DNA of 64,000 nucleotides. Origin: Eledone cirrhosa. Lineage: Eukaryota. The stretch lies in assembly GCA_964016885.1 (NCBI GenBank), contig OZ024752.1, forward strand, positions 15,748,001 to 15,812,000. Reading direction: 5' to 3'. Shown here piece by piece: positions 10,106 through 56,855 of this stretch. Within the stretch, counting starts at the first letter, position 1. Each line of letters starts with the position of its first letter. The translations under genes and the position numbers were made by a program. The notes below the pieces were generated by a model, which worked only from the letters and a program-made list of their open reading frames with translations, was not told where the DNA came from and ran no database searches.

Positions 10106-10219
10106 TAGGAAAACGTATGACCCCGACGGCAGAGCTCAAGCCCTTTCGACGGCTATTTCTGGAGTATTGAGTACACTGGTGCGTTATGGTCCATCTTGTT
10201 CCTTTCCACAATTCCTTTG

Positions 10220-10222
<3 letters not shown>
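10105..10222. mobile_element. Short fold-back copy of family 7 (inverted piece + tail)
   Basis: gtatgaccccgacggcagagctcaagc matches 56148; gtattgagtac..gcgttatggtccat..caattcctttgtta matches 56757-56813. Confidence 0.75.
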
Positions 10223-14486: not shown

Positions 14487-14746
14487 TATTTATATATATG
14501 AATATATATATATATATGTATATATATCTATACATATATATATATGGAGATATATATGTATATATGTATACATATATATATATGGATATATATATATATA
14601 TGTATATATATATGTATATATCGTCTCCGCTGAACCGGTGCGTACTCACACTCTATGCAAATTAGTCTGCCCACTACTAATTTTCATAGAAAAGCATATA
14701 ACGATATGTGCTTTTACGATTCTCCAGAAAGGCCGGTAGATAGGTA

Positions 14747-14791
14747 AATATTGCTGATGAGTTGTAACAACAACGAAACTAGTTCAATATT
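14747..14791 (+). ncRNA. Minimal type I hammerhead ribozyme, family 5
   Basis: aatattg-CTGATGA-gttg taacaa caac-GAAA-ctag-TT-caatatt. Confidence 0.9.
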
Positions 14792-15213
14792 CCTTGTCTG
14801 GCTTTCTGGAGAATAGAGGAAAGGCGTTTCCTCGAAAACCAGTATATCTCTAAAAACCGGTTTGTCTGTGTGTTTACATACAGAATAGCTAGGTTGCTCA
14901 CAGTAAAGTAATCAGTGAAAGACTTGGTACATCTACATATGTATACGTTTGTGTATTCATATGCATACTAGTATTTCAGTATGCATATGTAGATGTACAT
15001 GTTTAACGTAATTGTTTAAGCGTCAGTCATACAAAAGTGATTTACAAACGAAGCGAAATTTAATTTCGTTTCGTTATTTGTTTTTATCGTCTCCGCTGAA
15101 CCGGTGCGTACTCACACTCTATGCAAATTAGTCTGCCCACTATTAATTTTCATAGAAAAAGCATATAACGATATGCGCTTTTACGATTCTCCAGAAAGGC
15201 CGGTAGATAGGTA

Positions 15214-15258
15214 AATATTGCTGATGAGTTGTAACAACAACGAAACTAGTTCAATATT
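15214..15258 (+). ncRNA. Minimal type I hammerhead ribozyme, family 5
   Basis: Identical to 14747-14791. Confidence 0.9.
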
Positions 15259-15720
15259 CCTTGTCTGGCTTTCTGGAGAATAGAGGAAAGGCGTTTCCTC
15301 GAAAACCAGTATGACTCTAAAAACCGGTTTGTCTGTGTGTTTACATACAGAATAGCTGGGTTGCTCACAGTAAAGTAACCAGTGAAAGACTTGGTACATC
15401 TACATATGTATACGTGTGTGTATTCATATGCATACTAGTATTTCAGTATGCATATGTAGATGTACATTTTTAACTTAATTGTTATATGTATATATATATA
15501 TATGTATATATATATATGTATATATATATATGTATATATATATATATGTATATATGTATATATGGATATATATATATATATAATTATATATGTATATATA
15601 TATATACATATATATGTATATATATATATATATATATACATATATATGTATATATGTATATATATATACATATATATGTATATATGTATATATGTATATA
15701 TATATATACATATATATGTA

Positions 15721-29628: not shown

Positions 29629-32040
29629 GTTCTTTGAGTCTCAGTCATTGATGTTAGTTAACTGGAAAGTTTGTTGAAATGAATATCAAGCGACTACCTG
29701 CAGCCTCAGATATTCAGGAAGTATCGGAGAGTTCTTGCTGTTCCCAGCAAGCATGCCTTTTGAAGAGATCCAAAAAGCGTTGCGGGGCCAATTTCCTTTA
29801 ACCATCCCTGGAAACTTTTTGAGATAGTACCTAGTGCACCTATGACAATCGGGACCACTTTGACTTCATGGCAGTTCCAAATCCTTTTTACCTCCCACTT
29901 TAAATCCTGGTATCGGTTAATTTTCTCCCTCTCCTTCTCTTGCACTCTCGTGTCGAATGGGCAGGCCACATCCACAATCAGGCACAATCTTTTTTCCTTG
30001 TCCAAAACCACCAGGTCAGGTCTATTGTGTTCCAGTTTCTTGTCCGTCTGTATCCTAAAATCCCACAGCACCTTCACCTGATCGTTTTCTATCACCGACT
30101 CTGGCTTATGCTCATACCACTTCTCAGAATGTGGTAAATTGTTTACTTTGCATAGGTGCCAGTGGATCACCCTGCCCATCACATCATGTCTCCAGCCCTT
30201 ATAGTGAGTCTGGGCTATGTGCTTACACACGGATACAATGTGAGCCACCATCTCCTCTCTCTCTCCACATATCCTGCACAGTGGGCTAGCATCCTCCTTG
30301 TAAATATGGTGTTTCAACCACTTCGTTTTGAGGGCCTGCTATTGCGCAGCCATTATCATTCCTTCTGTAGCCTTTTTAAGGTCTCCTCTTTTCAACCAGT
30401 TCCATGTCTGTGGATCTCTGAATTCAGTTTTCTCAAAGAAGGTACTATGAAGGGATTGTTCATGAAGGCTGCTCTTTCTCCTTGTTGTTATTTCCTCCTT
30501 GGACATCCTCTGGTCTATTCTCTTCTCCTTCAGTACAATTCTGAGCATTGGCTCCTTACTATCAGTCACGTATTTGTGTAGGTGGTTTTTCTCCATCTGA
30601 ACACAGTCCTCTATGCTGATAAGACCTCTTCCATCTTCAGATCTCCTTAAGTAGAGTCTATCGACATCACTCCTCTTGTGGAACATGTTGTAGATAGTCA
30701 ATAGCTTCCTAGTTTTCCTATCCATTTCTTTTTGTTCAGCAATATTCCATCTCAGAATTCCCGCACTGTACCTAGTAATAGACACAGCTCGGGAATTTAC
30801 TGCACTTATGGCATTCCAACTGTTCAGGTCTGACTTTAATACGCTCCTTACTCTCCGAATGTATTCAGATATTATCAATTCCTTCATGTTTTTGTTCTTG
30901 GTGTCATCAGCCTCCAGAACACCCAAACACCTGTATCCTTCTTCAGTGTCAATTTCCTTTATCATCTCACCTGTTGGTACCGGGATTCCGTTGCTTCTGC
31001 TCAATTTACCCCTCTTCATCACAAGGAATCCACACTTACTAATACCAAATTGCATACATATATCATTGCTGAAAATACGGACAGTGTCAACAAGCAGATC
31101 CAACTCCTTCTCACGCTTCCCAAAGAGCTTAAGATCGTCCATGAAGAGGAGGTGATTGATGGTAAGCTCTCCCTTTCCTAACTTGTATCCTGCTCTCACT
31201 TTTCGCAGTATAATGGTCAGGGGAATCAGGGCAAGGACAAACAACTGAGGGGACAGACTATCTCCCTGGAAGATACCTCTCTTGATCTTGACGCATCCCA
31301 AGGATTCTCCAGCTGATGTTAACTCTGTTTTCCAGGACTTCATACTTTTGCCCAACAACTGTCTGATGTTATCTGCCACCTTGAAGATCTCTAGGCTTTT
31401 GGTGATCCAAGAATGATACACCATGTCAAATGCCTTTTTGTAGTCTACCATCCCATGGCAAGACCAGTGTGTCTCCTCCTGCAATTCCTCATTACCATCT
31501 TATCAATAAGTAACTGGTCCTTTGTACCACGGGACTTCTTTCGACATCATGTCTGTTCGTCCGATAACAAGTTGTTTGTGTGGAGATGATGGTAGATTTC
31601 CTCAGACATAATGCTTGTCAACAGTTTCCACATTACGGATAGACATGTGATAGGTCTAAAGTTGGTAACATCATTACCCTTGATTCGGTCTTTCATTACC
31701 AGAACTGTGGTACCTTTTGTCAACCACTCTGGTACCTCACCTGGCATCAAGCAGTCATTGAACATGCTTGTCAGTTTCGGGTGGAGGGATGTTATATTTT
31801 TAATCCAATACCCCTGCACACCATCTGGGCCTGGTGATTTCCAGTTGGTTAGTTTTTTGGCCTGCCCCTTGAGAGTTTCAACTGTGATACTCAAATCAGT
31901 TTGTTGGTGTGCCTGTTCACTAATCTCCTTTTGTACTGTCTCAATCCACACTGCCTGGTCATTATGTTTAACATCCTGCTCCCATATTCCTCTCCAGAAT
32001 GTCTTAGTTTGTTCCGCCTCAGGGAACAAGTCGTTGCCTC

Positions 32041-54971: not shown

Positions 54972-55067
54972 AACCACTTACTGGTTCCTATTACCCACTC
55001 TACTACCTCAAGTATTGAGTACTTTGGTGCGTTATGGTCCACCTGGTTCCTTACCACATTTCCTTCG

Positions 55068-55069
<2 letters not shown>
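54968..55069 (+). mobile_element. Minimal family-7 copy: tiny hairpin + tail
   Basis: taggaacca-cttac-tggttccta then tail homologous to 56733-56813. Confidence 0.7.
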
Positions 55070-55101
<32 letters not shown>

Positions 55102-56064: not shown

Positions 56065-56153
56065 CTATATTTATATATATATATATACATATACTATATT
56101 TATATATATATATATACTCTCTATATATATACTATATTTATGAAAAAGTATGA

Positions 56154-56247
56154 CCCCGACGGCAGAGCTCAAGCATTTTCGGCGGCTATTTCTGGGCTAA
56201 ATTAGAACATTTAGCCTGGTGAATAAATAGCCGAACTTATCAAGAGG
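56154..56247 (-). ncRNA. Variant hammerhead (TTGATAA core), family 7, left arm
   Basis: cctc-TTGATAA-g..cggctattt...aaatagccg.c-GAAA-atgc ttgagctct gccg-TC-gggg. Confidence 0.6.
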
Positions 56248-56626
56248 GTACTTCCTTATATGGGAAGATTGTAGTTGTCAAGAGGATTGGTTAAAATTTG
56301 TTGTAAACACAAATAAGTCTATCATGGCATTTTGTGGGAGGTAGGGGTAGCTGAACTTGCCTGTAGAACAATAGGGGGGGGAGTGGAGCGGTTAAGCGTT
56401 GAAAGTGATATGTATACAGGTAGACAAGGGCTTATACACTATCCTTAGAATCTGCTGTATACATATCACTTTCAACGCTTGACCACTCCACTCACTCCCC
56501 TATTGTTCTACAGGCAAGTTCAGCCACCCCTACCTCCCACCAAATACCATGATAGACTTATTTGTGTTTACAACAAATTTTAACCAATCCACTTGACAAC
56601 TACAATCTTCCCATTTAAGGAAATGC

Positions 56627-56720
56627 CCTCTTGACAAGTTCGGCTATTTATTCACCAGGCTAAAAATATTAATTTAGCCCAGAAATAGCCGTCAAAACGG
56701 CTTGAGCTCTGCCGTCGGGG
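56627..56720 (+). ncRNA. Variant hammerhead (TTGACAA core), family 7, right arm
   Basis: cctc-TTGACAA-long stem II-aaaa-cggc ttgagctct gccg-TC-gggg; the other two copies keep GAAA. Confidence 0.6.
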
Positions 56721-56855
56721 TCATACTTTTTCCTATTTCCAACTCTACTACCCTAAGTATTGAGTACTCTGGTGCGTTATGGTCCATCTGCTTCCTTACC
56801 ACAATTCCTTTGTTATATACTATATTTATATATATATAATATATTTATATATATA

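Follow-up and report, generated by a model that had tools for sequence, protein, structure and literature searches.

The window analysed here is a 64,000-nucleotide stretch of the Eledone cirrhosa genome. Comparing it with itself revealed an inverted repeat of about 597 bp with 89.7% identity (56139-56735), followed by a tail that reaches 56815; (TA)n lies on both flanks of the locus. We identify the locus as two 3' ends (pLTRs) of a Hydra-clade Penelope-like retrotransposon, damaged and joined head to head, within (TA)n; the first-pass annotation of this DNA had not named this parent element. The features are:

56139-56436, minus strand: left arm, an inverted, 5'-truncated element 3' end (pLTR); self-match 89.7%, inner terminus beside (TA)n
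56154-56247, minus strand: left hammerhead motif; core TTGATAA at 56243-56237, GAAA at 56180-56177, stem III broken (atgc for cggc)
56437-56815, plus strand: right arm, a 5'-truncated element 3' end with tail, terminating in (TA)n; 87-97% match to 29 other genomic loci
56627-56720, plus strand: right hammerhead motif, from sequence inspection, mapped reads and a pairing alignment
56627-56630 and 56717-56720, plus strand: stem I of the right motif
56631-56637, plus strand: core TTGACAA of the right motif, with G10.1 at 56638
56641-56649 and 56683-56691, plus strand: outer stem II of the right motif
56658-56664 and 56673-56679, plus strand: inner hairpin of stem II
56693, plus strand: C11.1, with G12>A at 56694
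56697-56701 and 56711-56715, plus strand: stem III, with the predicted cut after C56716
56665-56684, plus strand: interval within stem II (10-29 nt upstream of GAAA) that holds the ends of most short genomic copies
56737-56812, plus strand: tail of 76 nt, on one arm only; loose read ends at 56736 and 56810 continue as (TA)n
10106-10222, no single strand: short derivative, an inverted hammerhead 3' half (10106-10162, minus) joined to tail (10163-10222, plus), without the 5' core
54979-55070, plus strand: tail-only stub of a sister subfamily, without hammerhead

The layout of the left arm recurs in many genomic copies, and a 22-nt 3' motif occurs three times in the window versus not once in 100 shuffles. 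By analogy with the element described in PMC11167929, the two ends of the tail likely mark two reverse-transcription start sites.

The parent unit is 3.1-3.5 kb long (3,115 bp at locus L039, about 3,520-3,540 bp at L085, L311 and L312), ends in (TA)n and has one ORF, for a reverse transcriptase with a GIY-YIG endonuclease at the C-terminal end. The motifs of this ORF are RWR (for RWK), DKT, YRDDG, CxCx5C, YIG, CxxC and CxH, the linker and flanking sequences being CNCPDRS[TI]C, CNLC and CKH. Craig et al. (2021, PMC8557442) define the Hydra clade by RWK, DKT, a CxCX5C linker, CxxC and CxH flanking motifs and (TA)n targeting; the insertions studied here also share the layout of that clade, with (TA)n insertion and pLTRs in tandem or inverted copies with a tail. 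Set against the published definition, the ORF motifs and the (TA)n place the parent among the Hydra-clade Penelope-like elements. Neptune and Nematis were dropped as candidate clades because the CxCX5C linker, DKT, CxxC and CxH are all present, and a non-LTR retrozyme does not fit a motif that sits in a coding 3.1-3.5-kb unit with short copies that lack the 5' core. A Pfam scan of four ORF fragments returned no family match; among the Atlas neighbours of the ORF, some members have RVT_1 and GIY-YIG, which we treat as a lead only.

Intact 784-aa reading frames occur at L311 and L312, in head-to-tail arrays whose units are 99.8-99.97% identical, and a sister subfamily is therefore young. These arrays (G000:C1:91472500-91482400 and G000:C1:437199500-437209400) comprise at least four head-to-tail units with intact ORFs, and all six hammerheads seen in them have one C>U change in stem III, from G-C to G·U. 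Other Penelope-like families with a CxCX5C-type linker adjoin some of the insertions (L040:6107, L048:2188-2909). Within the unit, the motif precedes the element's 3' end by about 100 nt and the start of the following ORF by about 200 nt.

The first-pass annotation had described a non-canonical hammerhead with TTGAYAA on both arms, and this is what they contain, TTGACAA at 56631-56637 (plus) and TTGATAA at 56243-56237 (minus); the stem II pairings it named, the GAGCTC loop and the GUC-GGGG string are in place as well. Parts of its drawing had to be amended. Two of the three copies behind its consensus are the arms themselves, but the third (10106-10162) amounts to a 3' stub, lacks the 5' core and bears no evidence on U3-A8. 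The lone G10.1-C11.1 pair and the 2x1 internal loop at the start of stem II had been omitted, and stem III, given as 4 bp, has 5 bp when A15.1-U16.1 is counted. The inner hairpin, for which stem II was called branched, is weakly supported: 74.5% of its cells are paired, the outer pair is kept in 17 of 37 rows, and the aligned copies display no consistent compensation in it. A second GAAA, at 56682, was considered as an alternative core; on inspection, no stem I forms with it.

Both copies in the window have decayed, as had been noted. The right arm reads AAAA at 56694-56697 where GAAA belongs and thus departs from the conserved core found in the family consensus; because G12 is lost (G12>A), this hammerhead is predicted to be inactive. 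The left motif, with atgc for cggc in stem III, is likewise predicted to be inactive, its hammerhead-compatible fold fraction being 3e-7 in the energy model. The G12>A substitution is a change at a CpG that recurs in 5 of 29 old subfamily C copies, and it appears to fit neutral decay. Consistently, a family descriptor allowing Y3/R8 and a long stem II had no match of this family in the 64-kb window.

The intact form had been proposed from damaged copies, and single genomic copies do carry it whole (e.g., L007 and L008), the consensus keeping both GAAA and stem III. Many genomic copies have the U3/A8 core, GAAA, a 5-bp stem III and GUC. Raw reads mapped to the right arm have G at 56694 in 10,477 of 10,934 cases (X8) and 10,363 of 10,797 (X9); at 56629, 334 of 426 (X8) have C, and stem I is thereby restored to CCCC/GGGG. 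Most of our copy counts use patterns that require the core and cannot by themselves show its conservation; the samples independent of the core are the reads mapped on the right arm, a 121-nt motif-region search of the species' own genome (3.0 Gb; 1399 candidates, 40 scored) and the subfamily C copies chosen by upstream DNA. In the latter, old copies picked solely by that DNA, 27 of 29 have U3-A8, and their consensus retains the full motif.

The family consensus and intact copies have the conserved hammerhead core, U4 G5 A6, A9, G12 A13 A14, A15.1-U16.1 and H17, and the pairing alignment has three helices around it with helix I open. U4, G5, A6, A9, GAAA and GUC are identical in all eight subfamily consensuses, a core that is partly selected by the patterns, while the upstream DNA and the stem II apex diverge between subfamilies and position 7 is C, A, G or U depending on the subfamily. 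Subfamilies A and C are identical at 14 of 14 core positions and 8 of 8 in stem I, at 12 of 18 in outer stem II, and at 19 of 33 in the stem II apex and 7 of 16 in the 3' flank. In outer stem II, the six differences amount to three double changes by which pairing is preserved, all on one branch (C versus the rest). Across the alignment, 90.5% of stem I cells, 89.2% of stem II cells and 84.7% of stem III cells are paired, compared with 27-47% in slid controls; both the paired cells and the cells with double changes exceed shuffles (0/500), and the count of pairs with double changes does not (155/500). RNAalifold, applied to 40 mixed copies, recovered stem III and neither stem I nor stem II. Just 5' of stem I (window about 56607-56619; same place in L098-L120 and L252-L280), we observed a second near-palindrome, CCATATATGG in most subfamilies, which is itself retained in all subfamilies; the DNA further upstream diverges.

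Could the resemblance to a hammerhead have arisen by chance in a structured terminal repeat? Rfam offers no match to counter this: on the intact copy L007 it reported no hammerhead at E up to 10, and none at this place among the matches listed for the window (150 of 339), which comprised microRNA-type noise and two HH9-like matches elsewhere. The first-pass annotation had expected canonical CUGANGA searches to miss the motif. Furthermore, a long stem II leaves many degrees of freedom, and a looser scan of the window gave one chance-type U3/A8 match (19528). However, the descriptor, although fitted to this motif and written with it in view, matched the 3,531-nt unit once and none of 1000 dinucleotide shuffles, that single match lies near the 3' end, where Hydra-clade hammerheads lie, and outer stem II has compensatory changes. 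We consider coincidence very improbable. The motif is, as far as its sequence can tell, a genuine Penelope-type hammerhead motif of type I in a Hydra-clade element, both window copies of which are predicted to be dead.

Other hammerhead-like sequences occur in the window. The two HH9-like matches (38.6 bits, below the gathering score) are identical canonical type I hammerheads with a CUGAUGA core at 14736-14807 and 15203-15274 (plus strand), 467 bp apart in direct repeat, and look like a non-LTR retrozyme dimer. Further candidates with a canonical core and minimal stem III lie at 506 (minus), 646 (plus), 48524 (minus), 28493 (plus) and 55304 (minus), those at 506 and 646 forming an inverted pair, as in Penelope-element ends. 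Several non-LTR retrotransposon fragments occupy 29706-38051 (minus); from their motifs, we take them to be of the family type with a reverse transcriptase and a C-terminal restriction-like endonuclease.

The 3-8 pair is thought to be needed in hammerheads. Four patterns that differ at these positions in the same context gave, genome-wide, 4846 U3-A8, 1413 C3·A8, 52 U3·G8 and 14 C3-G8 matches, so that 4860 of 6325 have either U3-A8 or C3-G8. The first-pass annotation had interpreted U3-A8 as a compensated double change; within the clade, positions 3 and 8 do not covary, C3-G8 being expected 14.9 times under independence versus 14 observed (Fisher p=0.88), a descriptive figure rather than a test of selection, as the copies are related. 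A8 is nearly fixed, and position 3 is U or C depending on the subfamily: two subfamilies, recognisable by diagnostic bases of their own, have C3·A8, which is often present on both arms of one insertion and also flanks ORF remains, and U3·G8 is the state of the small subfamily D (13 of 13 sampled). The C3 subfamily may instead be read in a shifted register, with N7 deleted, C3-G8 kept and an extra A before G10.1; against this, the sampled C3·A8 arms have A7 in 3 of 36 and U7 in one, and the counts also include one with C7. A few old subfamily C copies (L116, L125 and L126) have a canonical C3-G8, beside U3·G8 relatives, and could be the trace of a canonical side branch.

A midpoint-rooted FastTree phylogeny, built from 120 of 200 arms after masking positions 3 and 8, is a ladder of subfamily C (U-A), D (U·G), A (U-A) and the two C·A subfamilies, with B (U-A) nested within the latter; the other 80 arms were dropped for lack of alignable upstream DNA, with the loss of most subfamily C copies. 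Median divergence from the consensus is 0.129 for C, 0.048 for D, 0.034 and 0.027 for the C·A subfamilies and 0.014-0.021 for A and B, the value for A being biased by the query. This reads as a tolerated mismatch with one apparent return to U-A, in events too few to prove selection. Since more than 1000 sister copies have the pair broken, it is likely not strictly required for spread.

These observations lend some weight to the proposal that the motif is a hammerhead relic without catalytic activity, retained as a structural RNA element, i.e., as a protein-binding site, a dimerisation palindrome or a reverse-transcriptase stop, with no role for cleavage: at least 1413 C3·A8 copies and a U3·G8 subfamily have spread, positions 3 and 8 are independent, and the base of stem II is weak, a lone G-C pair followed by the 2x1 loop. 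We nevertheless regard such a relic as unlikely, given that the core residues, GAAA and GUC stay constant (partly by pattern selection) while their surroundings diverge and that the tree has U3-A8 again after the C3·A8 stage.

Stem III, with 5 bp and a 9-nt loop, folds by itself (-6.5 kcal/mol in the energy model) and is longer than the 3-4 bp of 26 published Hydra-clade hammerheads. The first-pass annotation had suggested that it might permit cleavage as a monomer, and an efficient monomer ribozyme that strictly needs its U3-A8 pair would also accord with the fungal Penelope-element hammerheads with a large helix III, which cut as monomers (PMC4209133), and with the activity of U3-A8 cores in vitro, reported with reference to earlier work in PMC3088659. 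However, the GAGCTC palindrome is retained, including in copies not selected by it, and a GAGCUC duplex of two copies is computed at -26.9 kcal/mol versus -13.0 for two hairpins, i.e., the dimer is about 14 kcal/mol better. In subfamily A, moreover, a rival fold, with the core paired to the base of stem II, is 1.1 kcal/mol better than the hammerhead-compatible one, which accounts for about 2% of the monomer ensemble in a model that ignores tertiary contacts. As subfamilies with a mismatch have amplified as well, an efficient, strictly pair-dependent monomer seems improbable; monomer cleavage may occur, though the folding energies do not favour it, and a dimer or protein-assisted form is the likelier one.

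Most short genomic copies end within stem II. In two samples picked by the 3' half of the motif, 62 of 68 arms (40 places) and 30 of 45 (30 loci), together 92 of 113, end 10-29 nt upstream of GAAA, and the core is reached by 0 of 68 and 7 of 45, the seven continuing for at least 173 nt; shorter stubs that end 3' of GAAA exist too. Read depth rises about 20-fold across 56660-56707, and an exact 30-nt stretch of the 3' half has 38,168 genomic occurrences versus 6,325 complete-core matches, the two counts differing in stringency. Because arms from either terminus (56736 or 56812) stop alike, the stop is set by position rather than by length. At L064:1581-2230, a 257-bp tandem unit runs from the interior of stem II through the tail to the first ORF codons, so that cDNA whose priming took place within the ORF likewise ends in stem II. 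A fixed RNA 5' end in this zone is not supported: of 30 ORF-linked 5' copies, only 5 terminate there and 19 extend at least 63 nt upstream of GAAA, past the core position (a point in favour of a relic without cleavage). A splice acceptor was rejected too, as the breakpoints are variable and connect to inverted arms or (TA)n rather than to an exon. The likeliest cause, we infer, is a reverse-transcriptase pause in stem II. Our literature search found no description of such a stop inside stem II.

The closest known counterparts are the Cercyon Penelope-like elements of Schistosoma mansoni, with about 1,300 natural U3-A8 hammerheads of the minimal kind (Cervera and De la Pena 2014, PMC4209133). 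As described there, they share with the present family the U3-A8 core, the type I order, the pLTR location, a palindromic helix III region, opposite-strand pairs 100-700 bp apart and thousands of mostly truncated copies. Unlike Cercyon, the family described here has a stem II of about 56 nt whose first pair is followed by a 2x1 loop and a stem III in which 5 bp close a 9-nt loop; it lacks an extra base between A9 and G10.1 and includes whole subfamilies with C3·A8. The alignment in PMC4209133 includes a U3·G8 case (Saccoglossus) and none of the four C3·A8 strings for which we searched it. Perreault et al. (2011, PMC3088659) also reported natural U3-A8 in place of C3-G8, as covariation in scattered ribozymes, and the section on these variants makes no mention of amplified C3·A8 forms. 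Thus, the hammerhead-type motif with a U3/A8 core stands, but U3-A8 was not new; less usual features of the family are its long stem II and larger stem III, the amplification of C3·A8 subfamilies and the stop in stem II. A search of the hammerhead literature, of incomplete coverage, yielded neither an amplified C3·A8 form nor natural C3U/G8A variants.

With the Hydra-clade elements of PMC8557442, the family shares protein motifs, (TA)n targets, the tandem or inverted layout with a tail and a hammerhead near the 3' end. All 26 rows of File S2 of that study have C3-G8 cores, a short stem II and a 3-4-bp stem III with loops of 1-3 nt; unlike these, the present family has Y3/A8 and a long stem II, in a unit of 3.1-3.5 kb rather than generally less than 3 kb, and its stem III string was not found in the supplement. 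The Poseidon element PAc of Anolis carolinensis (Frangieh et al. 2024, PMC11167929) likewise has two insertion ends that bound a tail, and a hammerhead at the pLTR-ORF junction. It belongs to another clade, however, and its core is canonical (C3-G8); according to that report, this hammerhead was cleaved only when the protein of the element was present, and mutating its core left insertion in vitro normal. Cleavage is thus shown for PAc, protein-assisted and unneeded for insertion, whereas in the present family it is predicted. The spread of the mismatch subfamilies fits this dispensability in vitro, which can also be cited for a relic without a cleavage role.

Overall, we assign a probability of roughly 0.7 to the following reading: the locus is an inverted, 5'-truncated Hydra-clade insertion whose pLTR type I hammerhead likely undergoes slow self-cleavage, probably in dimeric form or with the help of a protein, both copies here being predicted dead. 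Under this model, tandem element copies would be transcribed, and the element protein would nick (TA)n and start reverse transcription internally, at window positions 56812 and 56736, giving rise to the tail and the inverted pair. Most cDNAs would halt inside stem II, a minority, including both arms here, reading through. The hammerhead would cut after GUC, by which the precursor RNA would be processed or circularised. Cutting would likely be helpful and not essential, because the C3·A8 and U3·G8 subfamilies also spread, yet the lineage is U3-A8 before and after them. Inserted copies would then decay neutrally, and in a transcript that crosses the palindrome the two arms would pair with each other.

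What hammerheads do in Penelope-like elements is a standing question in the literature (PMC8557442; PMC11167929). Having been published, the U3-A8 swap by itself matters little here. On a more speculative reading, which we regard as less likely than not, this family may amount to a genome-scale natural mutagenesis of a hammerhead, in which active lineages would have made more than 1000 insertions on a C3·A8 core, either cutting by way of a rescue (long stem II, dimer or element protein) or not cutting, and in which the fold would also brake cDNAs in stem II, capping insertions at about 60-135 nt. That cDNA ends group so tightly within stem II points to such a second, non-catalytic effect of the fold. 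With young, intact elements and four natural 3-8 states in one lineage, cleavage rate may be compared with copy number.
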